Below are positions 145 through 18,861 of a stretch of DNA of 19,349 nt, piece after piece. The translations under genes were made by a program, and so were the position numbers. Origin of the DNA: a virus (Duplodnaviria; Heunggongvirae; Uroviricota; Caudoviricetes); the IMG/VR virus record IMGVR_UViG_2576861133_000001, one strand, 5' to 3'. The notes below the pieces were generated by a model. That model had not been told where the DNA came from, ran no database searches, and saw only the letters and a program-made list of their open reading frames with translations. Within the stretch, counting starts at the first letter, position 1; each line of letters starts with the position of its first letter.

Positions 145-174
145 AACCCCGGTATCAGCAGATACCGGGGTTTT
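145..174. terminator. Rho-independent terminator-like hairpin, possibly bidirectional; may end the minus-strand late operon about 210 nt after gene I
   Basis: Perfect 10-bp stem ccccggtatc (147-156) / gataccgggg (161-170) with a 4-nt loop, followed by tttt (171-174) on plus and flanked by an A/T-rich stretch on the other side. Confidence 0.5.
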
Positions 175-2918: not shown

Positions 2919-3259
2919 CAGTTCACCACCTGCTCAATCGTACAACTGAAATCACTGTGCCTGGCGTTATCTGTGACGCTCCACTCCCGGCACACCACCC
3001 TCACCGTCAGGTTATGTTTCGGCGGTCGCCACAAAAAGGCACGGTAACCACCATGCCACGATAAAAATTCATCCAGCCAGCGCCGGGTTGGTTCATCCGT
3101 CACCCGGAACACCGCCTGAAACGTCTTCAGTCTGGCATTAAGTCCCGTCGGTCGGCGCTGTTCATAACCGTCACCAAACCGAACCCTCACCACCGACGGT
3201 TTCTCACTCACCTGCATCCCTTCACGCGGGACCAGATGCAGCGTTTTTATCTCAGCCAC
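2918..3259 (-). CDS. M: Lambda-type minor tail protein M
   Basis: 113 aa with a GTG start at 3259; PSVVRVRFGDGY and C-terminal EQVVN match recalled lambda gpM; the start overlaps the tape-measure stop. Confidence 0.8.
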   Translation of the reverse strand: MAEIKTLHLVPREGMQVSEKPSVVRVRFGDGYEQRRPTGLNARLKTFQAVFRVTDEPTRRWLDEFLSWHGGYRAFLWRPPKHNLTVRVVCREWSVTDNARHSDFSCTIEQVVN

Positions 3260-6200
3260 TCAGCATTCCTCCGTCACGTCGCATGGACAGCATCACCGCC
3301 TGCACCCGCTGGTCAATCAGCTGCACAAGACTGCCTGCCGCCTCCGCCCCTATCTGTCCGTTAGCCCCGTCATTCTGAATGGCGATGTGGTAGACCGGGG
3401 AATACACCAGACCGGCACTGCCGTTCATACTGCCCACCGCGCGTACGCCCAGCGAGCCATCCGCCGCCCGGGTCAGGGGCATAATGGCTTCAGGTCCGGC
3501 TTCCCCCATCAGCCCGGCCCCTTTTGCAAACGCAAAGTACGTGGGCGTGTCCACAATGCTGTTGCTGTACGCACTCAGGTTTGCCGAGGTATACACGCCG
3601 CCTTTTGCATTGGCCACCGCACCGCCCAGCCAGTCACCAATGCTGCCAATAAATCCTCCCGCACCGGACATACCGTTTGCCGCCGTCTTAATTCCGTTGA
3701 CAATCGCAGCATTCATAAGAACTTTTGAGATTTCCTGCAGTACGGATGAGGCCCAGTTGCGCCATTCCACTTTGTTTCCGTTCAGCATCTCCGTGATGTT
3801 ATTCACCATCCCTGAGATACCCTCCGTCGCAAGCTGTGCTGCCTGTGAGGCGTAATCGGATGCATTGTCCACCCAGTTACTGAGCCCCTCCTGCAAGCCT
3901 TTCTGCCAGTCCGCACGCTGCGCATCCGATTCGGCATAAAAGGCTGCCTGGTCCTTAAGGCGTTCGCTCAGATACTGCGCGTTCTGTGCCCGTGCCTGTC
4001 TGTAAAAATCCTCACTGATATCCCCGGTCTGATACTGAGACTGAAGGTCCGCATCCTTCTGGCGGAAGCTGTCACGGATCTGCTGCAACTCCCGCATGCG
4101 TTCCCTGGCTCGTTCTCCCTGCCCGTATCCCAGCAGTTCGGCTTCATTTGATGCACGCGCAGCCACATTATCATTCTTCAGGGTCTCTTCCCGGGATCGC
4201 AACTGTTCCCGGATTTTTTGCTGGTCAATCAGGGCCGCGTTACGCAGCAGTTCCTGCTTCTGCATCTCCGTCAGGGTTTTCAGTTCGCCCTGCGCAGTCT
4301 GGTACTTCAGCTTCGCCAGCTCTGTATTCTGACCCGCCAGTGCCAGTTGCTCTTTCTGCTGCTTCAGTAGCCGGGAAAAACTGTCTTCCGCTTTTTCCGT
4401 CTCTGATTTTCCACCCCGGGATTTAGGTTTGTTCGCCTCGTTATTACGCCAGGCTTCCAGAGCATTACTGATATAACGCTGTCTCGCCTCCTGATACGAA
4501 TCCCCCACAAAACCAAGGTCATCCGCCGCATACCCCAGCCGGGCACGCTCTTTTTCCTCCCCCTTCAGTCGGGACAGGGCCAGCTCACGTTCTGTTTTTG
4601 TCAGGGCGCTCTGCTGTTTATCATCCAGGGTGGCCTGCGGCAGCCGTAACGGTACATTCACCAGTCCCTGACGCTGCTGAAGCAGTTCATTCCCCAGCCC
4701 CAGCAGACGGTTGAATTCCGTATGCTGACCGTTCATAACCAGCATGGACTGGTACACCTTATTCTGCTCTGCCGCCTGCTGACGAATTAACGCCACACGA
4801 CGGTCTTCCAGCCCGGCAAGCACATCCTGAATGGACTGCGCTTTTTCCTGCATCTGTGCCAGACGGGACTGCTCAACGGCAAGCTGCTCTGTTGCCTGAG
4901 AAAGCCCTTCCGTCACGGTCTTCACCGATGTCAGATGGTTTATCATGAATCCGTCACCGGTTGTCCAGCCAGGGTTAGCCAGAACATACTGATATCCAGC
5001 GATTTTTTCCTGCAGGGATTTCACCCGGCTGGCCTGTTCATCAATCAGCCGGTTCTGCTCTGCCAGCGCCGCCCGTGTTCGTCCTTCATTATCTGAGGCT
5101 TCAGGCAAAGACATTGACGGCGTTTTATGCGCGATTTCATCTATCGTCAGTGCATACTGGCGCGCTGACTCCCTGGCCTGCTCCTGATTCTGGTACAGCG
5201 TATACCATGCTGCTGCCCCCAGCATCACCAGTCCGGGTACGCCACCAACCAGTCCCAACGCACCAGTCATCAGACGTGAGCCCACCGCCGTTGTACTGTT
5301 CAGCTCATTCTGGGCTGCGGTTCTGGCAGCAATATTTCTGTTCAGGCGTTCCTGTGTGGCCGCCAGACGGGCTTCTGCAGCAATCTGCATCTCCGTCCCG
5401 CGGGCTGCCGCCACAGCCTGCTGTGCACGGTACACGGCTGCCCTTGCCCGCGCCGTGGCAATCTGCGTCCCCCTGAGCTGTGCTTCCGCCAGTGCCACTT
5501 CATTACGTGCTGCCGTCACAAGTCCTGCCGTGGCAGACACCGCTCCGGAGGCCATATTGCCAAAGTACCGGGCAACCCCGACGGCAACCAGCGCCCCCGC
5601 GGCTGTTGCCACATTATCAATATTACCGGCAACACCGTTCAGCACGCCGGAGAGCGTTTTCGTCGCTCCGCTGGCTTCATTCGCGCCACCCACCCAGGCC
5701 ATAAAGGCGTTTTCCACCTTTGTGATCCCGTCAGAGACCGTTTCCGGCATGGCGGCATATTCATCACGCAATACCCCCAGCTGGCTGATTAACGCAGGAA
5801 CGACTTTATCCGCCGTCAGTTTGCCGTCGTCCGCCATCGCCTTAAGGTCTTTACGGGCCACGCCCATACCCGCAGCCAGTGCACGTACGATCCGGTCTCC
5901 GCTTTCATTGACCGAATTAAATTCCTCACCGCGTAACACACCCTGTGCCAGCGCCTGGCTGAACTGGGTGATCACCGAGCCCGCCTCTGCCGTACTGGCA
6001 CCGGAGATTTTCAGCCCCGTGGAAATGGCCTCCGTCACCTTCAGCACATCATCAGCACTGTAACCATATTCACGCATTGAGGCTGCCGAGCGGGCAAACA
6101 GGGCCGCATTATCTGAAAATGCCGTGCCCGTCCGCTGGCTGATATCCATCAGCACTTTCTGTGATGACGAAAATTCATCGGATGACTGCGACGCCTGTTT

Positions 6201-6494
6201 CAGTCGGGCATTCACGGAACTCCATTCATCGGCCAGAGAAATCAGGTGTCCGGTGGCAAAGGCACCTGCAAATGCCCCCGCCGTTCCGGCAGCTGAAGCG
6301 CGGATTTCCGTCAACTGGCTGTTCAGCTCAGCCAGGGCGCGTCGCTGCACCCGGGCGACTGCGGCAGCCTGACGCCCGCCATTCTGCAGGGTCCGGTAAT
6401 ATTCACTGCCCATGCGGGAAGCCCGCTGGATCTCCGACTGGAATGACTGCGAATTTGCCGAAATTTTGATAATCAGTTCACGTAACGTCGCCAT
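3252..6494 (-). CDS. Tail tape measure protein (lambda H analogue)
   Basis: 1080-aa ORF between the GT chaperone and M; Ala/Gln-rich coiled-coil-like sequence with Gly-rich hydrophobic segments; ATG at 6494 preceded by ggagaaagg. Confidence 0.85.
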   Translation of the reverse strand: MATLRELIIKISANSQSFQSEIQRASRMGSEYYRTLQNGGRQAAAVARVQRRALAELNSQLTEIRASAAGTAGAFAGAFATGHLISLADEWSSVNARLKQASQSSDEFSSSQKVLMDISQRTGTAFSDNAALFARSAASMREYGYSADDVLKVTEAISTGLKISGASTAEAGSVITQFSQALAQGVLRGEEFNSVNESGDRIVRALAAGMGVARKDLKAMADDGKLTADKVVPALISQLGVLRDEYAAMPETVSDGITKVENAFMAWVGGANEASGATKTLSGVLNGVAGNIDNVATAAGALVAVGVARYFGNMASGAVSATAGLVTAARNEVALAEAQLRGTQIATARARAAVYRAQQAVAAARGTEMQIAAEARLAATQERLNRNIAARTAAQNELNSTTAVGSRLMTGALGLVGGVPGLVMLGAAAWYTLYQNQEQARESARQYALTIDEIAHKTPSMSLPEASDNEGRTRAALAEQNRLIDEQASRVKSLQEKIAGYQYVLANPGWTTGDGFMINHLTSVKTVTEGLSQATEQLAVEQSRLAQMQEKAQSIQDVLAGLEDRRVALIRQQAAEQNKVYQSMLVMNGQHTEFNRLLGLGNELLQQRQGLVNVPLRLPQATLDDKQQSALTKTERELALSRLKGEEKERARLGYAADDLGFVGDSYQEARQRYISNALEAWRNNEANKPKSRGGKSETEKAEDSFSRLLKQQKEQLALAGQNTELAKLKYQTAQGELKTLTEMQKQELLRNAALIDQQKIREQLRSREETLKNDNVAARASNEAELLGYGQGERARERMRELQQIRDSFRQKDADLQSQYQTGDISEDFYRQARAQNAQYLSERLKDQAAFYAESDAQRADWQKGLQEGLSNWVDNASDYASQAAQLATEGISGMVNNITEMLNGNKVEWRNWASSVLQEISKVLMNAAIVNGIKTAANGMSGAGGFIGSIGDWLGGAVANAKGGVYTSANLSAYSNSIVDTPTYFAFAKGAGLMGEAGPEAIMPLTRAADGSLGVRAVGSMNGSAGLVYSPVYHIAIQNDGANGQIGAEAAGSLVQLIDQRVQAVMLSMRRDGGMLSG

Positions 6495-6510: not shown

Positions 6511-6533
6511 GTAAAAAAACCGCCTCAGCGGTT
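6511..6533 (-). terminator. Intra-operon hairpin with U-tract (attenuator-like) between T and the tape-measure gene
   Basis: Minus-strand stem aaccgc/gcggtt (6518-6523 / 6528-6533), 4-nt loop, followed on the minus strand by a run of six T; shares the motif AAAAAAACCGCC-N4-CGGTTC with the element at 14233-14258. Confidence 0.35.
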
Positions 6534-6541
6534 CTCATCAT

Positions 6542-6850
6542 TCATGACTGTGCTGCGAAGCTCAGCGCGTCTTCCAGCGCCGCAAACGGATCCACCTCCG
6601 GCTTATCCTCATCCTCGCCCCAGCAGAGCATGGCGTCCTTCAGTGCAACATTCATCCCCTGTGCCCCAAAAACCGCTTTCACGATCTGTGCATTACGGAT
6701 ATCCCCGCGCTCATCACCCAGCGGGGATACCCTGTCGAACTCCATCCACATCATCGCCTCGCTCACACTCAGGCTGTGCCGCAGTTCGGATAAGGTGCGC
6801 CCCAGACGGAGCGCAAGTCGCATCAGAAAGCGAATTTCCGGGCGGGCTAC
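6542..6850 (-). CDS. T-frame segment of the tail assembly chaperone GT fusion, reached by a -1 frameshift from G
   Basis: The ORF in the -1 frame relative to G is open from the slippery site to the stop at 6542; it encodes LRLGRTLSELR..., which resembles the T domain of lambda-type GT. Confidence 0.6.
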   Translation of the reverse strand, partial: VARPEIRFLMRLALRLGRTLSELRHSLSVSEAMMWMEFDRVSPLGDERGDIRNAQIVKAVFGAQGMNVALKDAMLCWGEDEDKPEVDPFAALEDALSFAAQS

Positions 6851-7221
6851 TTTTTTCTGGCCGACTCTGCATCAGCGATCAGTTCCAGTGCCTGACGCAG
6901 CAACCGGGCATGTACCGGACCATAGACGGCCAGCACCTGCTCACGGTCGTCCGGAGCGAACACCCGCTGCAGATCCGTATCACACAGGACATCGCAGAAC
7001 AGCGTCACATCCGCTTCTAGGTTACGGCGGGTTTTCGCCACCACCGACAGGGTATCGTCATCCTCTCCATCACCATTGAGCACTTCCTGCCACAGATACC
7101 AGGCCTCTGCCGAAGGCTCCCGCAGCACCACGCTGACATTACCCCATTCCGGCACCTTCACCGTTTTATGACGAAACCCTGACAGTCTGGCCAGCGCCAG
7201 CGTTTTCAGATCCTTTTTCAT
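6847..7221 (-). CDS. Tail assembly chaperone G
   Basis: Sits between the major tail and tape-measure genes; ends ...ESARKK immediately after the slippery heptamer; start chosen at ATG 7221 (MKKDLKT), though ATG 7269 is an alternative that would overlap the major tail gene. Confidence 0.65.
   Translation of the reverse strand: MKKDLKTLALARLSGFRHKTVKVPEWGNVSVVLREPSAEAWYLWQEVLNGDGEDDDTLSVVAKTRRNLEADVTLFCDVLCDTDLQRVFAPDDREQVLAVYGPVHARLLRQALELIADAESARKK
6850..6856 (-). promoter_or_regulatory. Programmed -1 ribosomal frameshift slippery heptamer A AAA AAG (G to GT)
   Basis: Minus-strand reading gcc aga aaa aag tag; heptamer A_AAA_AAG lies in the G zero frame two codons before the G stop; the -1 frame continues open into T. 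Confidence 0.6.
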
Positions 7222-7235
7222 GATGACCCATCCCC

Positions 7236-7952
7236 TTATCCGGCGGCTGCGCTCACTGTCACGGTGCATTCAACAGACGTCACACTCTGTGCTTTCTCTG
7301 CCGAATCGGTCACCACGCAGGTATATTTCCCCGCATCAGCGGACTGCGCACCTGGCTTACTGAAGGTGTCTGTCGTCTGCCCGTCAACCGGCTGACCATC
7401 CTTCTTCCAGGCGTATTTATACGGCGGCGTTCCCCCGTTGGCACTGACTGACATTGTCAGCAGCGCACCTGTATTCACGGTAAGTGTTTTATCCAGATTT
7501 TTCACAAACGCCAGCGGTACCACAAAGGACACCGGTTTGCCTTTCATACGCAGTGAAAACGTTGCTGCCACCACGCCGTTGGTACCGGATGACCAGGTGT
7601 GCTGACGCACTTCCGCCAGGAACTTAAAGCCCTTACCGGACGGAAACAGCACCTTAAACGCATACAACGCGTCATTGTCATAGGCATCACGCAGGGCGTT
7701 CTGGGCCTGATTCAGATAAAAATTACCCGACATGGAAATCTCAGACGACGCCCCCAGACCGTTGATGTTCTCCTGCTCGGTGGAGCAGAGCGTGGTCACA
7801 TCAATATCCTGTTTCTGACCAGCGGTGAACTGGACTTCCTTGATGGTGCAGTCCAGGCGCAGATATTCCGCCTTATCCATAGTTTCAGCAGTCGCCGGGG
7901 CAGATGAAATCATCACCTGCGTCAGCTGTGAGCGTTCATACAAAGCAGACAT
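7236..7952 (-). CDS. Major tail protein with a C-terminal Ig-like domain
   Basis: 238 aa; strong AGGAGG ribosome-binding site upstream of ATG 7952; its position before G/GT; C-terminal segment KYAWKKDGQPV...GKYTCVVTD resembles a bacterial Ig-like fold. Confidence 0.8.
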   Translation of the reverse strand: MSALYERSQLTQVMISSAPATAETMDKAEYLRLDCTIKEVQFTAGQKQDIDVTTLCSTEQENINGLGASSEISMSGNFYLNQAQNALRDAYDNDALYAFKVLFPSGKGFKFLAEVRQHTWSSGTNGVVAATFSLRMKGKPVSFVVPLAFVKNLDKTLTVNTGALLTMSVSANGGTPPYKYAWKKDGQPVDGQTTDTFSKPGAQSADAGKYTCVVTDSAEKAQSVTSVECTVTVSAAAG

Positions 7953-7964
7953 TCTGCCTCCTGA

Positions 7965-7989
7965 TAATAAAAAACCCGCACGCGGCGGG
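7965..7989 (-). terminator. Hairpin with U-tract immediately upstream of the major tail gene
   Basis: Stem cccgc (7975-7979) / gcggg (7985-7989) with the A-run 7965-7974 on plus, which reads as a U-run after the stem on the minus strand. Confidence 0.3.
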
Positions 7990-8018
7990 GTATGGGTTTT
8001 GTAGAAAAAAAGAAAAAG

Positions 8019-8363
8019 TCACACCGTGACCTGAAACTCCAGGGTTGCACGGTAACAGCGGTTTTCCGGAATATAGTCCTGCATTTCACTGACGGATCCC
8101 GGGGCCAGCAGCATTATGGCTTCACGGGCGTCCTGACGTATCTGACGCGCCTGCGTCACAGTCCCGGCATAAACGTCTATCTGCACCGACACTGAGGACT
8201 CCGCCTGCCCGCCCATCACGTCCGCAGACACCGATGAAATCAGGCTGAAAACCACCCACGGAAGCGCCACCGACGGCCTGCCATCCAGCAGGGGGACCAC
8301 ATACGGGTACACCTGCCCGCCGGCAAGATGCGCCAGATGAGGATACAAATCCGCCTCCGTCAT
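8019..8363 (-). CDS. Tail completion / tail terminator-like protein (DUF3168-like position)
   Basis: 114-aa ORF; its ATG overlaps the upstream stop as ATGA; assignment is by position between the gp10-like gene and the major tail gene. Confidence 0.55.
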   Translation of the reverse strand: MTEADLYPHLAHLAGGQVYPYVVPLLDGRPSVALPWVVFSLISSVSADVMGGQAESSVSVQIDVYAGTVTQARQIRQDAREAIMLLAPGSVSEMQDYIPENRCYRATLEFQVTV

Positions 8364-8806
8364 CGTCTCAGTACCTCATCAATGGCCCGGTTCATCCGCG
8401 CAATCGCCACCTGAGCTGCCTGTTCACTGCGCACATCAAACGCCGGGCGCACAAACGGGTGCGGTGGCATATTCACGGTCCCCATTTCCACAAACCGCCA
8501 GTAGAAAGCATTGCGCGGGTTATCCGCCTTCATGGTGTTATCGCTGTTACCGGTGTCCGGATTAACACCACGGATATGGACACCGGATTCCATCCCGCCA
8601 TCGCGGGAGCGCCGGGAAAGGACCACCACATTGCGGCGCAGTTTTCCCCTGCGTACCGGTGCCCGTGACACCACTTCTTCTTTCAGCACATTCGCACCCG
8701 CACGGGTTGCCTCACGCAGCACCCGGTTATTTTCCGCACCACTCAGAAGCTGCAAATCGCGGCTGATGTCCTCCAGCCCCGAAAAATCCAGCAGGGTTTC
8801 GATCAT
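8360..8806 (-). CDS. HK97 gp10-family head-tail joining protein
   Basis: 148 aa; translationally coupled at both ends by ATGA overlaps; sequence style and position are typical of the HK97 gp10 family (recollection). Confidence 0.6.
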   Translation of the reverse strand: MIETLLDFSGLEDISRDLQLLSGAENNRVLREATRAGANVLKEEVVSRAPVRRGKLRRNVVVLSRRSRDGGMESGVHIRGVNPDTGNSDNTMKADNPRNAFYWRFVEMGTVNMPPHPFVRPAFDVRSEQAAQVAIARMNRAIDEVLRR

Positions 8807-9153
8807 TTTTCCCCTCCCAGCCGACAGAGAATTTCCAGACGCCCGCCGGTCGCATCCGGCACGGGCAGCCCGACAACGTTCAGGATCCGGTCACGCCATG
8901 GACCACTCAGCACATGAAGTCGTGACGCTGCCGTGATTTCCCGACCGGACTGACCGCGCACCCAGATGCGGATTTCCGCCTGCGCCATTTCCGCACCGGA
9001 CTGCATCCGCTCCCGGCTGCTCCTGCCTCGGATATCCGCATGAATTTTCCCGCATGACACCCATTCTTCCGTCATTTCTCCGGCAGCGTTACGGGTTAAC
9101 ACCGGGTTCAGAACACTTATCATCTGTGTCAGACGACCTGCAGATATTGCCAT
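8803..9153 (-). CDS. Head closure / head-tail adaptor protein
   Basis: 116-aa ORF that is second after the portal in the head-tail joining cluster; stop overlaps the next start. Confidence 0.55.
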   Translation of the reverse strand: MAISAGRLTQMISVLNPVLTRNAAGEMTEEWVSCGKIHADIRGRSSRERMQSGAEMAQAEIRIWVRGQSGREITAASRLHVLSGPWRDRILNVVGLPVPDATGGRLEILCRLGGEK

Positions 9154-9162
9154 TCCCCCTCC

Positions 9163-9489
9163 TCATAACACCGTCGGACAACGCAAATCGTAAATCAGCA
9201 CGGAAACAGAAAACGGCAGCTCCCCCTGAAGCAGTTCTTCCCGCTCCGCAAGATCCGGATTCCGGTACAGCATCCCGGTCAGTCGCATGGCAGCCCCCTT
9301 CATCCGGGTTAATGCCTCGCCCGGGATCAGTTCACCGTCCTCACGGATCACTTTATCCCGGCTGCCCTGAATGTAGGCCAGCAGCACGGCGGTAGCCTGA
9401 CGAACCTTGTCCATCAGCATGTCATCATCCGCGTCATGGTCGACACGCAGATGTGCCTTGATCTCTTCCAGTGTCAGTAATGCCGTCAT
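9163..9489 (-). CDS. gp6-like head-tail connector protein
   Basis: 108 aa; N-terminal motif LTLEEIKAHLRVDHDADDD is typical of gp6-type head-tail connectors; its ATG overlaps the portal stop. Confidence 0.7.
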   Translation of the reverse strand: MTALLTLEEIKAHLRVDHDADDDMLMDKVRQATAVLLAYIQGSRDKVIREDGELIPGEALTRMKGAAMRLTGMLYRNPDLAEREELLQGELPFSVSVLIYDLRCPTVL

Positions 9490-12071
9490 TTTCCGCCTCC
9501 TGCATCCCGCCCACGTTTTGCAGCCAGGGTCCAGGCTGATGAATGAGCTTCTCCGGGTTTATCTTCGGTCATACTGTTGCAGTGCCACAGCGAGCCCCCC
9601 CACGTCACCGTATCGCCGGGGTGGTAGGTTTCACCGGCTCTGAACACACCGCGGTAGAGCATCACCGGCAGGGAAAATGTTTTTTCCGTACGCTGGCCAC
9701 TGCTCTGCCGGACCACCACAGAGAACAACCGCTCACCCGTCATGCTGACGTCAATATCCGCCACCCCGTCAACCAGGCATTCCCATCCCCGCATCCCGTG
9801 CGTTTTTTCATACGCCCGCCAGAGTCCGCCCTGGTGTGTGGCATACGTGCCCCGGGGAAAGGATTTTTGATCGTCAATGGCGGGGAGTATTTCCAGAGCC
9901 GTGGCATCACGCCCGTCCTGCGGAGCCGGCAGGGCACTCACCGCATCCAGAACCGCCTTCTGCAGAACATCCGGATCGTAGTCACGACCATCACGCGGAA
10001 CATGAATATGGCTTACCGCCTCCTTCACCATCTGTTCAAGCATCGGACGCACATCATCCGGGGTGAGACTTTTACCGTCTGCCGGCTGCGGAATATTTGC
10101 GACCGCATCATTCACCGCCTTCTGCAGAACATCGGGATCATAGTCACGACCGTCGCGCGGAACAGGGATATGGCTTACAGCCTCCTTCACCATCTGTTCA
10201 AGCATCGGACGCACATCATCCGGGGTGAGACTTTTACCGTCCGCCGGCTGCGGAATATTTGCGACCGCATCATTCACCGCCTTCTGCAGTACTTCCGGAT
10301 CGTAGTCACGACCATCACGCGGAACAGGGATATGGCTTACAGCCTCCTTCACCATCTGTTCAAGCATCGGACGCACATCATCCGGGGTGAGACTTTTACC
10401 GTCCGCCGGCTGCGGAATATTTGCGACCGCATCATTCACCGCCTGCTGCAGTACATCCGGATCATAATCACGACCATCACGCGGTACCGGAATGGCCCCC
10501 ACAGCGTCATCCACCATCGCCTGCAGAACCGGACGCACCTCATCCACCGTCACATGCTTCTGTAATACCGCCGACAGGGAAGTCAGTTTCTCTTCAAACG
10601 CTTGTGCCTGCGAGGCCATCTTCCCCTCAAATGTGCGCTGTAAATCCGCCAGCACTGTGGAGAATTCTTCTCCCAGTGCACGAATAATGGACAGTTCCCG
10701 TTCCGTCATTTTCTCAGTATCCCCCCTGAACATCGCTTTCACCGCATCATGCTCTGTTTCACTGATTGCCTTATTACCGTCAGATGCGCCGTCAGGCAGC
10801 TGTGATGAAACTGTTTTCCCGGCAGACGCGAACGGATCCTCACGGGCATCACGACGGGACAGCGCCTCCAGACTGTAGTTCTGCTGCTGAAGATACAGTG
10901 CATCACCGCCGGCCAGGGGCGGCAGGTTCTCCCGTTTACGGGCCTCATTGGGCGTGAGAAGCGTATTTTTCACCGCATCCCCCAGCGTTTTCATGCGCCG
11001 CTCACTGTCCATTCTCAGCAGCGTGGTGACATCAAATTCTGTACTCTCGTTTTCCCCCGTTTCCAGCGCCTCATCCAGTAACAGTTCAATGGACTCAATC
11101 AGCGTCTGCAGGCACTGGGAATAATACTGCTGCTCCAGCGCCTCCACGTTGTCACTGGAAGGCGGTTGTCCCACGCCAATCTTGTAGGCCGGGACACGGA
11201 ACACCGAACAGACAATTTCAGCGGTCATCTTCAGTTGTTCCACCGTCTGCGCATCCACAGGTGAAAACGTCGTGGGGTTGTATTTTGCCCCGTTGCTCAG
11301 AATGGCCGTTTTCCCCGCATTTTCGCCTGTATACCCGCTGTCCCAGTTGCTCTTCAGTTTTTTCGCATTTTCTTCCGTAATACTGCCGGGGATCTCAATC
11401 ACCCCGGACGGCCTGCCGCCATTTCTGAAAAAAGACGTCGAATTTTCCTGAATATGATGCCCCTGCGTGGCCGCCAGCCCGGCGGCATACACCGGCGGCA
11501 ATCCTATAAGCGGATGAAAAAAACAGTTAAACCGGTCGTGGATCACTTCCCGGGCAGGCACCGTCACCGCCTCCGTGATCCCGCAGTTCCGGTCCGGCGT
11601 GATGCGGTAGAACACCTCGCCGTCATCCGCCACCAGAGGTTCAACCCGGCTCCAGTCCAGAATACGCAGTTCTTTGATCTGCCCCCGGGCATTACGGATT
11701 TTCAGCACCACCGTATTGCCATGACGCAGTTTGGCGTTCAGCCACAGTTCAAAAAACTGGATGCGGTTCTGCTGGGCGTTGGGACGACGACAGAGGCGGG
11801 CAATATCCCCCCGGCGCGTTTCCCTGCGTATCCCATGCGCATCCGTCTGCATAAGACGCAGCCGCATTTTGGCGATATCCTGGGATATCAGCGAAATACA
11901 TGCAAACACCGCATGAAAGGAGAGGACGGCTTCAGGATCGGCTTTCACGCCCTGCTGCCAGGCGCCGGAAAAGGGCTCAGCCACCGCCTGAAACAGGCTG
12001 GTCCAGCCCGCCTCTCTTACGTCACGTCCTGATTTCTGGTTTTTTCGGGTTCGCCGTAAAAGGTTCCACAT
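9486..12071 (-). CDS. HK97-family portal protein with a roughly 350-aa C-terminal extension (tandem 54-aa repeats plus a terminal aromatic-rich domain)
   Basis: The N-terminal roughly 450 aa align by eye to HK97 portal (FRNGGRPSG...KTAILSNGAKY...FRVPAYKIG against recalled FGNGSRPSG...KTAVL...FGVPPHLVG); the C-terminal part is an uninterrupted extension of the same ORF. Confidence 0.8.
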   Translation of the reverse strand: MWNLLRRTRKNQKSGRDVREAGWTSLFQAVAEPFSGAWQQGVKADPEAVLSFHAVFACISLISQDIAKMRLRLMQTDAHGIRRETRRGDIARLCRRPNAQQNRIQFFELWLNAKLRHGNTVVLKIRNARGQIKELRILDWSRVEPLVADDGEVFYRITPDRNCGITEAVTVPAREVIHDRFNCFFHPLIGLPPVYAAGLAATQGHHIQENSTSFFRNGGRPSGVIEIPGSITEENAKKLKSNWDSGYTGENAGKTAILSNGAKYNPTTFSPVDAQTVEQLKMTAEIVCSVFRVPAYKIGVGQPPSSDNVEALEQQYYSQCLQTLIESIELLLDEALETGENESTEFDVTTLLRMDSERRMKTLGDAVKNTLLTPNEARKRENLPPLAGGDALYLQQQNYSLEALSRRDAREDPFASAGKTVSSQLPDGASDGNKAISETEHDAVKAMFRGDTEKMTERELSIIRALGEEFSTVLADLQRTFEGKMASQAQAFEEKLTSLSAVLQKHVTVDEVRPVLQAMVDDAVGAIPVPRDGRDYDPDVLQQAVNDAVANIPQPADGKSLTPDDVRPMLEQMVKEAVSHIPVPRDGRDYDPEVLQKAVNDAVANIPQPADGKSLTPDDVRPMLEQMVKEAVSHIPVPRDGRDYDPDVLQKAVNDAVANIPQPADGKSLTPDDVRPMLEQMVKEAVSHIHVPRDGRDYDPDVLQKAVLDAVSALPAPQDGRDATALEILPAIDDQKSFPRGTYATHQGGLWRAYEKTHGMRGWECLVDGVADIDVSMTGERLFSVVVRQSSGQRTEKTFSLPVMLYRGVFRAGETYHPGDTVTWGGSLWHCNSMTEDKPGEAHSSAWTLAAKRGRDAGGGK
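9869..10546. repeat. About 4.2 tandem copies of a 162-bp (54-aa) near-identical coding repeat inside the portal gene
   Basis: Period-162 registration at 9961, 10123, 10285 and 10447; the three central copies differ by only a few substitutions; protein unit DDVRPMLEQMVKEAVSHIPVPRDGRDYDPDVLQKAVNDAVANIPQPADGKSLTP. Confidence 0.85.
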
Positions 12072-12238
12072 TCGCCATGCTCCGCATCACGTTTCTTTTT
12101 CTGACCTGCCGGACGTCGCACCGTGATGTACTCCGCCTTTCCCAGGCGAACCAGCACCTCCGCACACGGCTGTGCCACATCACGGATATCCCCGGCCCGG
12201 GCATCATGCGTGCCCTGCAGATATCGGATCTTTGCCAT
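12017..12238 (-). CDS. Hypothetical 73-aa basic protein in the capsid-portal intergenic gap (doubtful)
   Basis: ATG-initiated ORF in the ORF track; weak ribosome-binding site; overlaps the first 18 portal codons out of frame. Confidence 0.2.
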   Translation of the reverse strand: MAKIRYLQGTHDARAGDIRDVAQPCAEVLVRLGKAEYITVRRPAGQKKKRDAEHGECGTFYGEPEKTRNQDVT

Positions 12239-12282
12239 AACCTGTTACGGGAGGCGCACGCCTCCCGTCCTCCTTATCAGAC

Positions 12283-14220
12283 TCAGCCGCCGGACGCACT
12301 GCCGTAGTTCACTCCGGTGATCACCGCCACCGCCGCAGTACGGCGACGACGCCAGTTGATCCAGCGCTCCGCACGGATGGCCACGCTGCCTGTCTGGAAC
12401 ATGGAAACCAGCTCCACCGGGGACGGCGTGGTACTGTCGCCGGTCGGCTCAGACTGCATTTCCAGTGATGCCTCGCGGGACATATCCACTGCCACGCCGC
12501 CGTCATCCGCCAGATAAATATCCGGGGCATTCACCAGCACCAGCTGGTCACCCACGTACTGGGAGACAATCACCGGCAGCCCCTGGAAGGAGCCACCCAG
12601 CAGGGTCATGTCCGGGTATTCCTTCTGACCCAGCGCATTTTTACGCATGGACAGTGCCAGGGCATTGGTGCTGGACATCAGCCAGACCGCACCGGTGGGC
12701 TGCAGGTTTGCTGCCACAAACTGTCCAAACGCAGCCTCTGCATCCGCATCCGGGTTACCGGTTGATGCCGTGCCCTTCACATCATGGGTGATGGACGCCG
12801 GGGAGACATCTGCCACTGCGGCTTTTTTCGGGTCCACAAAGTCTGTATCCAGACGCGCCACCACCGCTTCCGCCAGCGCATTACGGACCAGTGCATCAGC
12901 AGCCGGACTGGAAAAACGGATCAATTCTTCCGTCAGTACCGCAATGGCCGACACCTTCGCATGACTGAAGGTGATGGATTCAAAATCAAACTTCGTCAGG
13001 GGTTTTGCCTTACCCTCACCCACCCAGCCGGCAGCACCGCCGGACACCTGGGCGTGCACACGGATATTGAATGGCACCTGACGAAGTGCAGGGATCCCGC
13101 CCTGACCAAATCGCCCGATAATGGTCTGCGGACGCAGGTAATCAATAAAGTCCTGTGCGTATTCCTGATATTCAGACAGGCTGCCTGCCCACTGCGGATC
13201 CGTGGTGGTCCCCGCGCCCACTGCCGATTTCAGGACATGATGCAGACGACTGTCATCCGGATACTGACGACGGGCCACTTCCAGGGCTTCAGATCGGACG
13301 CCTTTAGCCGCAGCCAGCGATTTGGCAAAGCGGGCGAAGCCAATCCCCTTATCCAGTTTCTGCTCCACACGGATCACCGGCGCAGAAGCCACCGCGGCCA
13401 CATTCCCGTTACCGGCCTGTTTCACCGGCTGCGCCGTGGCGGCCTTACCGGCTTCCAGTTCACGCAGGCGCTTCAGGTGCGCATCCACCTGACGGATTTC
13501 CGCTGCGGTGTTGTCGTAATGCTCTTCCTCCTCCACATCCAGCGTGCGCCCTTCCTCTGCGGCTTTGGTCATGACCTCCTCAAGGGAGGCTGCCAGCGCT
13601 GCACGCTTGTTTTCAAAACTTTTAATCTGTTCGCCAATATTCATTATGGTCTTTTCCTTATGAAAAACGGTTGTTGACTGTGCCGCAGCGCCGGCAGAAG
13701 ATGCGATTTTCACCACCGGTTTCCGGTTGCCGGACGCGGCAGAAAACGGGCGGTCGTAAGATTTAATGGTCCGGATGGTGCATTCCGCATTCGCGGGCAC
13801 GGTGACGGCAGACACCTCCATCAGTTCCCAGCGCAGAAAATGCAGTCCGCCTCCGTCCAGAAAGGTGTATTCATGGGGACGGAAGCCCACGGACAGCCCC
13901 CTGACCAGCCCGGTCTTAATGGCCGCCCAGACCTCATCCAGCCGGGCAGCCAGTTGCGACGGCATATCCGGTACGGGCTTCACCAGTGTTGCCGTGATTT
14001 CCAGCCCTTCGCTGACCCGGCGCACCGTACACTGCCCCACCGGGCGGGAATGGTCATGCTGCCAGAGAAACGGGATCGCACTGCCAAACTCCGCGCCCTC
14101 CGGCTCCAGGATGTCACCATCCCGATCCGGAGAAGGCGTTGACGCAATCCCGGTGATCACCCGTTCATCCTCACTGAAGGATTTCACCGTCAGCAGGGAA
14201 CAGGCCCGTTTAAGAGTCAC
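12283..14220 (-). CDS. Fused HK97-family prohead serine protease (S78-like) and major capsid protein
   Basis: 645 aa; N-terminal protease-like motifs (GIASTP...LWQHD...GLSVGF...EVSAVTVPAN), a central coiled-coil delta-like segment, and a C-terminal HK97-fold capsid-like region; GTG start at 14220 preceded by AGGAGG. Confidence 0.8.
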   Translation of the reverse strand: MTLKRACSLLTVKSFSEDERVITGIASTPSPDRDGDILEPEGAEFGSAIPFLWQHDHSRPVGQCTVRRVSEGLEITATLVKPVPDMPSQLAARLDEVWAAIKTGLVRGLSVGFRPHEYTFLDGGGLHFLRWELMEVSAVTVPANAECTIRTIKSYDRPFSAASGNRKPVVKIASSAGAAAQSTTVFHKEKTIMNIGEQIKSFENKRAALAASLEEVMTKAAEEGRTLDVEEEEHYDNTAAEIRQVDAHLKRLRELEAGKAATAQPVKQAGNGNVAAVASAPVIRVEQKLDKGIGFARFAKSLAAAKGVRSEALEVARRQYPDDSRLHHVLKSAVGAGTTTDPQWAGSLSEYQEYAQDFIDYLRPQTIIGRFGQGGIPALRQVPFNIRVHAQVSGGAAGWVGEGKAKPLTKFDFESITFSHAKVSAIAVLTEELIRFSSPAADALVRNALAEAVVARLDTDFVDPKKAAVADVSPASITHDVKGTASTGNPDADAEAAFGQFVAANLQPTGAVWLMSSTNALALSMRKNALGQKEYPDMTLLGGSFQGLPVIVSQYVGDQLVLVNAPDIYLADDGGVAVDMSREASLEMQSEPTGDSTTPSPVELVSMFQTGSVAIRAERWINWRRRRTAAVAVITGVNYGSASGG

Positions 14221-14232
14221 ATCAGCCTCCTG

Positions 14233-14258
14233 AAAATAAAAAAACCGCCGGAGCGGTT
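14233..14258 (-). terminator. Intra-operon hairpin with U-tract between the terminase large subunit gene and the capsid gene
   Basis: Stem aaccgc (14243-14248) / gcggtt (14253-14258), loop cgga, followed on the minus strand by tttttatttt; same sequence family as the hairpin at 6511-6533. Confidence 0.4.
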
Positions 14259-14283
14259 CGTGATGGTTACAGTGTGAACAGGG

Positions 14284-15945
14284 TTATATGAAAAAAACCG
14301 CATATTCTTTCTTTTTCGGTTCCGGGTTAAGGGACATCAGGGAGACCGCATTGAACAGCGCCATCAGCGGGTCAATTTTTCCCCGTCCACTGGCCTGTTT
14401 GGTGATAAGAATGGCGTTACCTTTAGGCTCCACCCGGGCATTGCCGACACACCAGGCCATCAGGGGCTGGTCACCATGCACCAGCACCCCTTCAGCCAGT
14501 TTGCGCTCGGTGGTTTTAATGGCCCCGCCCAGTTTCCAGCCCTGGCTTATCCCCACCACAATTCCGTCGGGGATCCCGGCTTCCGCCAGTGAATCCAGAA
14601 TCTGCCCCACCCCTGACGGGTCAATACCGATATGGTCCAGTAACTCAGCCTCATGAATGCGACGCACATATTCCGCCACTTCCGCCGTGTCATCCCCGAC
14701 ACGCCGGACAATGGTCATATCTCCACAGGCAACAAGATCCTGAAACCGGGACGCCTCGCTCTTCCGTCGGACCACCGCGGTTTCATGCGCCCAGGCATGG
14801 CCCCAGCCCAGCCATTCGCGGGTCTCCCGGTCACGCCCAATCACATACATCCCCAGCAGATCATCCAGCCCTCCGCCGTCAATCCCCACCGTCACCACAT
14901 CAGCACGACGCAGGATATCGTCCAGGCTGATACAACGGCCCTGCTCTTCCCAGAAATCAGCCCCCGCCCAGCGGTCAGAGCGCAGGGCAAGACCAATTTC
15001 CACATTGGCGTGTTTTGACATGAACCCCCGGAATGTCTCTTCACCGGCTTCCCGGGCTTTACGGTACTCCCGGTACAGAAAGGCCTCATCCACTGAATAG
15101 CCGAGATTCGGATTGACCATGGCGAGGTTTTCCATCAGCAGGTTAGTCCCGCTTTCCACCATTTCAGGAGGGTGTTCAAATATCACCGGCAGAAAGTGCG
15201 GATCATGAATTTTGCCGTCGCGCACATCCCGGGCGTACTGCAGTTTCTGTCTGAACACCCCGGCGGGCGGTTCATTCGACTGGGTGGTCGTATACACCAC
15301 AAACCCTTCCGGGCGGGAGGCAAGGCCGCCTATGGCTTCACGTAACATGTCCTCCGCCTTGCACTGCTTGCCAAACAGCCACAACTCATCAATCAGCGTA
15401 CCCACGGACTTGATACCGGACACCGTATTCGGATCGGCTGCCACCACCTTCAGGGTGGTGTCCGTCACTCGGTGGGTGATGGTCCGGATATGGGTCTGTA
15501 CCTGGCAGAGGTCATCCAGATCATCGTCACGTCGTACCATATCCCGGGCAGGGTTGAAGGCGTTGGCCGCCACCTCCACAGTCGGGGCCAGAATCGTGTA
15601 ACCCGCCGCCTGCCGCCAGTTCAGTAACAGTGCAGTCATCATGATCCCCGCGGCCAGCGTGGACTTCGAGTTTTTCTTGGGGATAAGGATAAAAACTTCC
15701 TTGATATGGCGTACACCGGTCTGCGCATCGTAGGAGCCAAACAGGGCCGCCACCAGGTCAAACACCCACGGTGCACAGGACTCCCCGAACGTAGGGCTAC
15801 CAGGTGCATCCACAATCCGCAGTTGTTTAAAAATCGCCAGGGCATGTGCGGCCTCGTCCGGATAAATCGGATCCGGAATAATCGACAGCCCCTTTTTCAG
15901 GCGCTCTGCCCAGTCCGGGCAGGCTGTGCTCCATACAGGTATCAT
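14284..15945 (-). CDS. Terminase large subunit
   Basis: 553 aa; Walker-A-like LIPKKNSKST; C-terminal nuclease-like region; ATG overlaps the small-subunit stop as ATGA. Confidence 0.85.
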   Translation of the reverse strand: MIPVWSTACPDWAERLKKGLSIIPDPIYPDEAAHALAIFKQLRIVDAPGSPTFGESCAPWVFDLVAALFGSYDAQTGVRHIKEVFILIPKKNSKSTLAAGIMMTALLLNWRQAAGYTILAPTVEVAANAFNPARDMVRRDDDLDDLCQVQTHIRTITHRVTDTTLKVVAADPNTVSGIKSVGTLIDELWLFGKQCKAEDMLREAIGGLASRPEGFVVYTTTQSNEPPAGVFRQKLQYARDVRDGKIHDPHFLPVIFEHPPEMVESGTNLLMENLAMVNPNLGYSVDEAFLYREYRKAREAGEETFRGFMSKHANVEIGLALRSDRWAGADFWEEQGRCISLDDILRRADVVTVGIDGGGLDDLLGMYVIGRDRETREWLGWGHAWAHETAVVRRKSEASRFQDLVACGDMTIVRRVGDDTAEVAEYVRRIHEAELLDHIGIDPSGVGQILDSLAEAGIPDGIVVGISQGWKLGGAIKTTERKLAEGVLVHGDQPLMAWCVGNARVEPKGNAILITKQASGRGKIDPLMALFNAVSLMSLNPEPKKKEYAVFFI

Positions 15946-16505: not shown

Positions 16506-16579
16506 AGCCTCCTCCCGGGTCCAGAACGCACTCAGCCGGGTATGGTTCAGCCCATTTTTCCCGGCGTCTCATGCCGCAA

Positions 16580-16702
16580 ATGTTAACTGCTGCCTGGTTA
16601 ACATTTGCTGAAAAAGCCTGTTAACATTTTTTCCGCACAACAAACTGAATAATAAAGATAAAAACCGCAAAAATGCCCGGGCAGCCAGTTAACATGTTAA
16701 CT
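16580..16702. promoter_or_regulatory. Array of five GTTAAC(AT) palindromic motifs; candidate cos / terminase small-subunit binding region
   Basis: GTTAAC at 16582-16587, 16597-16602, 16620-16625, 16688-16693 and 16696-16701, four of them with the extended 8-mer GTTAACAT/ATGTTAAC, inside the 290-bp gap between the HNH and terminase small-subunit genes. Confidence 0.55.
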
Positions 16703-16795
16703 GCCCTGAAACGGGAATTTTTTCTCTGCGTGAGAGGGGGCGCGGTGTCCAAAGCGATCGTTTTTTACGCCGGATGATACCCCCCCCGGGTTGGG

Positions 16796-17202: not shown

Positions 17203-17403
17203 ATGTCATCGAAAAACCGGACCCGCAGAACCACAACCCGCAATATCCGTTTCCCCAATCACATAATTGAACAGATCAACATCGCCCTTGAGCATAAAGG
17301 GTCCGGTAACTTTTCAGCGTGGGTTATTGAAGCCTGCAGGAGAAGGCTGGCAACAGATGCAACGCATCTGCGCCCGGCCAGCATGACAAATAACGAGAAA
17401 TGA
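17203..17403 (+). CDS. Small ribbon-helix-helix-like protein, possibly YlcI/YnfO-like (DUF3950-type)
   Basis: 66-aa ORF from ATG 17203 with an AAGGAAA ribosome-binding site 5 nt upstream; sequence NIRFPNHIIEQINIALEHKGSGNFSAWVIEACRRRL resembles RHH-type small prophage proteins (recollection); it is the only plus-strand gene in the window. Confidence 0.5.
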   Translation: MSSKNRTRRTTTRNIRFPNHIIEQINIALEHKGSGNFSAWVIEACRRRLATDATHLRPASMTNNEK

Positions 17404-18825: not shown

Positions 18826-18861
18826 ACAAAACCCCGCTTGCTGCCAACAAACGGGGTTTTT
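18826..18861. terminator. Bidirectional rho-independent terminator-like hairpin downstream of the endolysin gene
   Basis: aaaacccccg ... cggggtttt: stem ccccg (18832-18836) / cgggg (18852-18856) extended by A/T pairs, followed by a T-run on plus and an equivalent U-run on minus. Confidence 0.45.

Follow-up and report, generated by a model that had tools for sequence, protein, structure and literature searches.

The stretch of DNA described here (19,349 nucleotides (nt); IMG/VR record IMGVR_UViG_2576861133_000001; hereafter the window) is the late region of a lambdoid prophage, and our subject is three short elements, each a hairpin followed by a U-run, that lie between its structural genes and are referred to as sites 1 to 3. 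The window is 100% identical to the partial phage record ON470626, ~98.8% identical to the Stx2c phage 2851 and 95-98% identical to many Stx1/Stx2 phages; with the exception of two duplications it is also the sequence of the prophage found at ompW in E. coli strain 21437. The late genes are carried on the minus strand and run from the endolysin gene through the Rz region, an HNH gene, terS and terL to site 3, which is followed by a protease/major-capsid fusion and an open reading frame (ORF) of 73 amino acids (aa). After this ORF come the portal, connector, head closure, gp10-like and tail completion genes, then site 2 and the major tail gene with its Ig domain, then G, T and site 1, and finally the tape measure gene, M, L, K, I and J. 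Most neighbouring genes in the window overlap by 1-4 nt; real gaps are few, and three of them, of 63, 66 and 47 nt, are taken by sites 3, 2 and 1 respectively. The sites and the genes next to them are as follows.

14284..15945, minus strand: terL (large terminase; PF03354, PF20441), upstream of site 3
14238..14259, minus strand: site 3, hairpin GAACCGC-UCCG-GCGGUUU (hairpin 14259-14242, U7 14244-14238)
12283..14220, minus strand: prohead protease-major capsid fusion gene, downstream of site 3, with a GTG start at 14220
7969..7989, minus strand: site 2, hairpin CCCGC-CGCGU-GCGGG (hairpin 7989-7975, U6 7974-7969)
7236..7952, minus strand: major tail (tube) protein, Ig domain at the C-terminus, encoded downstream of site 2, 70% identity to HK97 gp12
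6513..6536, minus strand: site 1, hairpin GAGAACCGC-UGAG-GCGGUUUUU (arms 6536-6528 and 6523-6515, U7 6519-6513)
3252..6494, minus strand: tape-measure protein gene, downstream of site 1, with an ATG at 6494

The sequences of the three elements were taken by direct reading of the window and the hairpins were folded on the minus (coding) strand. Site 1 forms a 9-bp stem with a tetraloop (-10.8 kcal/mol), begins 5 nt past the stop codon of T (6544-6542) and ends 18 nt before the ATG of the tape-measure gene. Site 2 forms an all-GC stem of 5 bp with a 5-nt loop (-8.5 kcal/mol) and is followed by the Shine-Dalgarno (SD) sequence AGGAGG and then by the ATG of the major tail protein (7952); site 3 forms a 7-bp stem with a tetraloop (-10.9 kcal/mol, z -4.4) and is likewise followed by AGGAGG (14231-14226) and then by the GTG of the protease-capsid gene. 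All three thus have the parts of an intrinsic terminator, namely a GC stem of 5-9 bp, a loop of 4-5 nt and a run of six or seven U residues abutting the stem, and all three stand after a stop codon, outside coding sequence and oriented with transcription in gaps of 47-66 nt. That the sites might be bidirectional terminators is ruled out, as their complements are without U-tails.

A sequence-only reading of this DNA had reported a nearly identical motif at two places, a related element before the major tail gene and, on the minus strand, a stem-loop followed by a U-run at each, and these observations hold up. Exact copies lie at 6513-6534 (AAAAAAACCGCCTCAGCGGTTC in the plus-strand reading) and 14238-14259 (AAAAAAACCGCCGGAGCGGTTC), one nucleotide away from where they had been placed, and site 2 reads on the plus strand as A6 (7969-7974) followed by CCCGC-ACGCG-GCGGG (7975-7989), with the U-run directly abutting the stem in every case. 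The genes had also been assigned correctly, with site 3 between terL and capsid, site 2 between tail completion and major tail, and site 1 between T and tape measure. Furthermore the description of the elements as intrinsic-terminator-like structures on the coding strand within one operon agrees with their anatomy, strand and placement, and the folding that had been suggested as a check gives a hairpin of moderate stability at each site.

The conservation of the elements was followed through 332 related loci gathered from IMG/VR, GTDB genomes, metagenome contigs and GenBank, in which the distant relatives have TerL proteins 57-90% identical. Junction analyses were carried out on the first 325 of these loci together with the window, and an element was counted where a hairpin plus U-run reached -7 kcal/mol or better. 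It is kept at 51 of the 59 unique terL to capsid junctions, where the failures are mostly long gaps or mis-called starts, at 49 of the 54 unique tail-completion to major-tail junctions, where the stems differ, and at 5 of 10 junctions between T and the tape-measure gene. Relatives with the element span E. coli, Salmonella, Citrobacter, Enterobacter, Proteus, Phlomobacter, Hafnia-type, Pseudomonas and others, and in nearly all relatives the 3' end of the hairpin lies 16-25 nt from the start codon.

An alignment of the hairpins with MAFFT was unusable for counting pairs because loop lengths differ and the 5' arms fell in two registers, and stem pairs were therefore tabulated by a structure-anchored script. 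The 24 perfect-stem hairpins at the terL to capsid junction have 17 different loops and the 35 at the major-tail junction have 24, and every tabulated variant (CCGC, CCCGC, CCCCGC, CCGGC, CCACC, CCGCC, GACCGC and GCCGC) is fully paired. In close relatives of the window site 1 exists as two alleles of the same design with different stems, GAGAACCGC-UGAG-GCGGU7 and GAAAACCUGC-UGUG-GCAGGU8 (the latter in full GAAAACCUGC-UGUG-GCAGGUUUUUUUU), and at site 3 the loop varies (UCCG, UGCG, UGUCG or UGUG) with the stem intact. The U-run has no variable columns across close relatives at any of the three sites and is retained in distant relatives; the most variable segments in close relatives are the loops and the spacer 5' of the hairpin. 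Stems that differ and still pair, with loops that drift, amount to a structure maintained by compensatory change, and this pattern of conservation is the signature of a selection that acts on a GC stem and a U-tract rather than on any particular sequence. That sites 1 and 3 are nearly identical is consequently best seen as two instances of one constrained design.

Phages of Burkholderiales and Pseudomonas that have the HK97 order of head genes show where such elements are not to be expected. At their terL to portal junctions a hairpin is found in 10 of 73 cases, those being dubious, and at their portal to protease junctions in 4 of 25, only where a gap exists. The hairpin is absent where genes overlap, as they do in most of these phages, and usually present where there is a gap; the rule is thus "where there is a gap" and not "after terL".

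It could be asked whether the elements are a chance resemblance, that is short GC palindromes that happen to lie beside T-runs and have no biological meaning. A scan with a generic terminator consensus finds 23 terminator-like sites in the window against 17.3 +/- 4.5 expected, which is no overall excess, and the fold z-scores of the three sites against shuffles are modest (-1.0 to -4.4), so that energy and count alone would not make the case. However, the exact motif AAAAAAACCGCC-N4-CGGTTC occurs twice in the window against an expectation of 0.03, a number reached in 0 of 200 shuffles. A strict scan of both strands for a hairpin plus U-run, with intergenic sequence (8.6% of the window) defined by PGAP annotation, gives eight matches on the coding strand, five of which are intergenic (binomial p=2e-4), and one match within the operon on the antisense strand; the five are the three sites together with a match between endolysin and Rz (18860-18828) and another between I and J (172-146). 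The non-random signal is thus the placement of the elements, together with their conservation across phages, which extends to hundreds of loci. Given these comparative data we find chance hardly credible, and consider it to be effectively refuted. No sigma70-like promoter is predicted near the three sites on the coding strand, which argues that they stand within a single operon.

The three sites do not stand alone. In the intact phage 2851 a hairpin resembling tR' comes after a Q-like antiterminator gene, and beyond it stand about 15 further intergenic elements of the same kind on the coding strand, ~16 in total against 7 weak intragenic matches. Using the gene names of its annotation, these elements are found after the tRNAs, after stx2B, before the holin gene, after Rz, between terL and capsid, between tail terminator and major tail, between T and tape measure, between L and arc, between ant and K, between I and J, between J and lom, between lom and stf, and after tfa. 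In the prophage of strain 21437 an antitermination protein gene is annotated, CCCGCC-GCCU-GGCGGG-U6 lies ~100 nt downstream of it, and from there the same series runs onward through J, lom and the tail fibre, making ~12-13 elements. Since this is the window's own prophage, the further copies that the sequence-only reading had proposed looking for in the full prophage do exist. Salmonella relatives also have PF06530 Q genes. Both in phage 2851 and in the window's own prophage several terminator-like elements therefore stand in series in one transcription unit, and the Q-type gene and promoter-proximal terminator lie upstream on the same strand, outside the window and within the same prophage. 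Sites 1 to 3 belong to a series of about a dozen elements that fill nearly every sizeable gap of the late operon. The association with highly expressed genes that had first drawn attention to them does not survive this wider view, as elements also precede the low-copy genes K, J, lom and the holin gene, and stf, and the tape-measure gene downstream of site 1 is itself low-copy.

We consider that the three sites are probably genuine intrinsic terminators in a Q-dependent late operon which are bypassed by Q-modified polymerase and insulate the late genes. On this account an RNA polymerase not modified by the Q-type antiterminator, whether it had leaked through tR', started spuriously inside the operon or transcribed a moron in the lysogen, would form the GC hairpin over the U-tract and its transcript would be released. 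The structural genes would thereby be kept silent in the lysogen and moron transcripts would be insulated, and after induction the Q-loaded polymerase from the late promoter would ignore the terminators and transcribe the whole operon. Termination of the unmodified polymerase, read-through by the modified one and insulation as the selected benefit are what we infer from a U6-8 run abutting a GC stem, the strand specificity, the series downstream of a Q-type gene and the use made of the hairpins by morons (see below), which together point to conditional intrinsic terminators. The location of the hairpins would be explained by the rest of the gene string being overlapping and translationally coupled, with no other gaps to offer, and the distance of ~20 nt from the end of the hairpin to the start codon by only the SD having to follow. 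It is established that Q makes RNA polymerase resistant to terminators and that Q antiterminators load at a promoter-proximal site and not at hairpins (PMC6606751). A late antiterminator, which had been one suggestion of the sequence-only reading, is accordingly the one that fits best given the Q-type gene upstream, although the hairpins would be bypassed by it and would not be its targets.

Counterparts of such elements are already annotated in HK97 (GenBank NC_002167; Juhala et al. 2000), where features labelled "terminator, putative" are found inside the late operon before the protease-capsid pair, after capsid, before and after the major tail gene, before the tape-measure gene (post gene 15), before I and before J. 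The tail genes of HK97 are homologous to those of the window (gp10 75%, tail completion 48%, major tail 70%, T 60% and the N-terminus of the tape measure 78%), and because of this the features at 6692-6719, before the major tail gene, and at 8398-8422, before the tape-measure gene, are positionally orthologous to sites 2 and 1. The HK97 hairpins, AACCCGCC-AGAT-GGCGGGUUUU and ACCCGC-UAUCAA-GCGGGUUUUUUUU, have the same form as those of the window and differ in the sequence of their stems. An element also stands upstream of the protease-capsid pair of HK97, whose capsid gene is followed by a hairpin in which the U-tract is poor; as the order of head genes differs, with portal before protease and capsid, site 3 is analogous and not orthologous to that element. 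A further difference is that in HK97 the gene-15 moron, missing from the window, precedes the terminator in front of the tape-measure gene.

Lambda resembles the window's system in having a single late promoter and a Q-type antiterminator. In the gap between D and E, directly before its major capsid gene, it has AAAGGCCGCC-UGUG-CGGCUUUUUUU (CGGCU7), and there is a UUCG hairpin after E as well as a hairpin with a U-rich tail before J and another after lom. Lambda lacks counterparts of sites 1 and 2 because it has far fewer gaps, with 7 nt between U and V and an overlap of T and H. To our knowledge only tR' amongst the lambda terminators has been characterised experimentally.

Predicted Rho-independent terminators have also been described in P22-like phages (phage L), where they stand at module borders inside a late operon with one promoter (PMC8022706). 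The structural genes of these podoviruses are unrelated to those of the window and the positions of the terminators are different. The roles offered for terminators inside a late operon are partial termination or the stopping of spurious transcription that is not antiterminated (PMC8022706). Our literature search found no direct tests of intra-operon terminators before capsid genes. Term-seq has been reported for O157 Sakai (PMC7547250), whose prophage Sp15 has a lambda-type head module and not the module of the window.

The use made of these hairpins by other genes is best seen at the junction of T and the tape-measure gene, which is the site of the first moron to be described, HK97 gene 15 (PMC3594210). 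In the Enterobacter relative L081 a promoter-like TTGACC...TAGGAT and a 111-aa membrane/zinc-ribbon ORF (10734-11169) stand between the T stop codon and the hairpin, and the hairpin that closes this insert, AAAACCGC-UUCG-GCGGU7-ACG, is clearly homologous to site 1. The arrangement is that of HK97, in which an insert of promoter and gene also stands between the T stop codon and the hairpin and has the hairpin as its terminator. At the site 2 junction the same relative has a KilA-N-like ORF of 176 aa (8780-9610) flanked by two hairpins, one following the tail completion gene and the other preceding the major tail gene. A second relative, L161, has an Ail/Lom gene (13591-14199) at the T to tape-measure junction, and a third, L162, has kept two hairpins with no gene between them. 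Each of the morons found in relatives at the site 1 and site 2 junctions is ended by the resident hairpin or by a second one, and from the inserts lying between the T stop codon and the hairpin it would appear that new genes land upstream of the resident terminator and make use of it. The window's own three gaps of 47-66 nt are free of ORFs and, on the minus strand, of promoter-like sites; compared with moron units such as HK97 gene 15 and lambda lom/bor, which consist of promoter, gene and terminator, they hold only the terminator part.

The capsid gene is followed by a hairpin of another kind, which the sequence-only reading had missed.

12253..12274, minus strand: strong hairpin ACGGGAGGCGUGCGCCUCCCGU without a U-run, 8 nt past the capsid stop codon, -17.8 kcal/mol

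A strong hairpin stands after the capsid gene in 70 of 73 unique relatives, 57 of these having no more than three U residues in the next 8 nt, and a similar one is found after the major tail gene in many relatives; lambda (after E) and HK97 (after gene 5) have the same post-capsid arrangement. By analogy it looks like a 3' stabiliser of mRNA, in a class distinct from the three sites. Intercistronic hairpins that stabilise mRNA are known from polycistronic operons such as pap and puf and from the REP element of malEFG. These provide the best analogy for the hairpin at 12274-12253 and possibly for a secondary role of the three sites, although they have no U-tract and are not terminator-like, whereas the three sites have both traits. 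It is this post-capsid hairpin, and not the three sites, that is the better candidate for the role in RNA stability or processing that had been proposed for the latter.

Several observations weigh against conditional termination. At -8.5 to -10.9 kcal/mol the three short hairpins have no more than moderate stability. In Salmonella-type relatives the gap between T and the tape-measure gene is a mere 1-21 nt and site 1 is absent, and it is hence dispensable in that lineage. Any residual termination would cut the expression of capsid and tail tube, an apparent cost, and the spacing of 16-25 nt with a U-run adjoining the SD could equally reflect a role in translation or RNA stability. Furthermore the purpose of lambdoid intra-operon terminators has been left unsettled in the literature, with insulation as a hypothesis (PMC8022706). 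The spacing is the point of departure for a reading that we regard as unlikely, whilst keeping it in view, in which the hairpin and U-run act in the mature late mRNA and not on RNA polymerase. They could serve as a protective 5' hairpin after endonucleolytic processing, as a U-rich landing site for the ribosome (S1) and structural insulator for the strong SD that follows, or as both, and together with a 3' hairpin lacking a U-run would bracket the capsid and tail-tube cistrons and make them stable and highly translated. The constancy of the hairpin-to-start spacing and the U-run abutting a strong SD (AGGAGG) are what it would predict, and it gains from the post-capsid hairpin in its 70 of 73 relatives, from that often found after the major tail gene and from the like bracketing of lambda gene E and HK97 genes 4-5 and 12. 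Yet the U-run always abuts the stem, which is specific to intrinsic termination and is needed neither for S1 binding nor for 5' protection, and the low-copy tape-measure, K, J, lom and holin genes are preceded by elements too. That a conserved two-part bracket, made of a hairpin with U-run before the start and a hairpin at the 3' end, extends from lambda gene E through HK97 to the window's family and is something beyond a bypassed terminator we hold to be rather doubtful. If it were true the bracket would cut stable, highly translated mRNA segments, coding for the virion proteins made in greatest number, from a late transcript that is itself equimolar, and the differential expression of late genes would partly be encoded in intergenic RNA structures.

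It has been proposed for P22-like phages (PMC8022706), and was put forward for the window by the sequence-only reading, that such elements are partial terminators which attenuate even the late complex and so step mRNA dosage down the operon in keeping with the stoichiometry of the virion. Such attenuation would make sense at site 1, where many copies of tail tube and chaperone are followed by few of the tape measure, but has the wrong polarity at sites 2 and 3, where low-copy terminase and connector genes lie upstream and the two most abundant virion proteins downstream, so that the products most needed would be lowered. As a dozen partial terminators in series would moreover starve the distal tail-fibre genes, and Q-type antitermination is present, we think it quite improbable that the sites work in this way. 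A further possibility is that they have no present function and are the residue of evolution, being terminators of deleted morons or linkers at the junctions of mosaic recombination. The classic moron site between T and tape measure (HK97 gene 15, PMC3594210), where L161 and L081 carry genes, is suggestive of this, as are the two hairpins of L162 with no gene between them and the shifts in similarity to relatives that occur across the junctions. Residues would decay, however, and here stems and U-runs are maintained by compensatory change across genera while loops and spacers drift; most relatives also have no moron at sites 2 and 3, and we find a purely historical origin very hard to sustain.

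A relationship to a known regulatory RNA was also considered and rejected. No part of the window has a match in Rfam at gathering thresholds, and a permissive search places the covariance model of isrK (RF01394) on the minus strand at the three sites (6513-6580, 7969-8072 and 14238-14323) with sub-threshold scores of 27.3, 18.2 and 18.1 bits against a gathering threshold of 50. The alignment at site 1 is carried largely by the terminator hairpin and U-run. IsrK is a short transcript directly downstream of antQ in Gifsy-1 (PMC4825925), and short RNAs of the IsrK/StxS type end at tR' (PMC4825925, PMC7547250). Both IsrK and StxS lie directly downstream of the Q gene and late promoter, whereas the three sites lie between structural genes, and with matches that are sub-threshold and confined to the terminator portion they are not to be identified with isrK.

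Three further hairpins lie in gaps of the window, the first two being members of the series described above.

18828..18860, minus strand: 15-bp hairpin whose complement folds as well, with U-rich tails on both strands, -20 kcal/mol, in the gap between endolysin and the Rz region
146..172, minus strand: perfect bidirectional hairpin of 13-14 bp, -22.6 / -23.3 kcal/mol, in the gap between I and J
8016..8032, minus strand: weak AU-rich hairpin with a U-rich tail in the site 2 gap, overlapping the tail-completion stop codon, not conserved

The hairpin at 18828-18860 stands in a gap of 292 nt from the endolysin gene to the small ORFs before Rz and is intergenic by the PGAP annotation of strain 21437; the mechanically called ORFs that overlap it are probably not genes. 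That at 146-172 is ~105 nt upstream of the J start codon, which is at position 40. On the plus strand of the same I-J gap, within 246-376, there is a strong sigma70-like promoter (TTCACA-16-TATAAT, 11/12) at 246-273 and a terminator of hairpin plus U7 at 352-368, which closes a unit of ~95 nt antisense to the late operon. This unit, for which there is no Rfam match, is a candidate small RNA or small "reverse moron" like HK97 gp23, which also lies between I and J. The hairpin at 8016-8032 is partly deleted or variable in close relatives. Within gene M, at 3038-3057 on the minus strand, lies an 8-bp GC hairpin followed by U5 (-11.8 kcal/mol), which phage 2851 shares; it exceeds in strength all other terminator-like sites inside genes on the coding strand of the window.

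Other features of the window are unrelated to the hairpins. Two exact in-frame tandem duplications of 252 bp are found in tail-tip genes, at 708-1211 (the I/K region) and 2204-2706 (L), and are missing from ON470626 and from the otherwise 100% identical chromosome of strain 21437; possible origins are an error of assembly, an event specific to the strain and a change that was introduced. Between the Rz region and the HNH gene a gene of the YlcI/YnfO (DUF3950) family (17203-17403, plus strand) lies on the strand opposite to the late operon, and is an antisense moron at the position where lambda carries bor. Finally, the gap between the HNH gene and terS (16506-16795, minus strand) has (A)TGTTAAC five times, with both orientations represented, along with a G8 run, and is probably the cos or small-terminase binding region of an HNH-dependent packaging system of the HK97 type.

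The elements are real and conserved but ordinary, as intra-operon terminators of lambdoid late operons are already known, and the value of the analysis lies mainly in annotation and in the design of experiments, with nothing in it that should surprise a phage specialist. What it adds is the demonstration of structural conservation, the view of the elements as a series, the link to the landing sites of morons and the separate class of post-capsid hairpins. The prophage family offers well-conserved and easily mutable test cases for the purpose of terminators inside operons. For the family itself, which is widespread and includes Stx phages, the picture is one of Q-dependent late operons punctuated by conserved, predicted terminators at essentially every sizeable gap, in which the capsid gene is flanked by two different classes of hairpin and moron genes, such as those for toxin, Lom and exclusion, insert directly upstream of these predicted terminators, which were already there.

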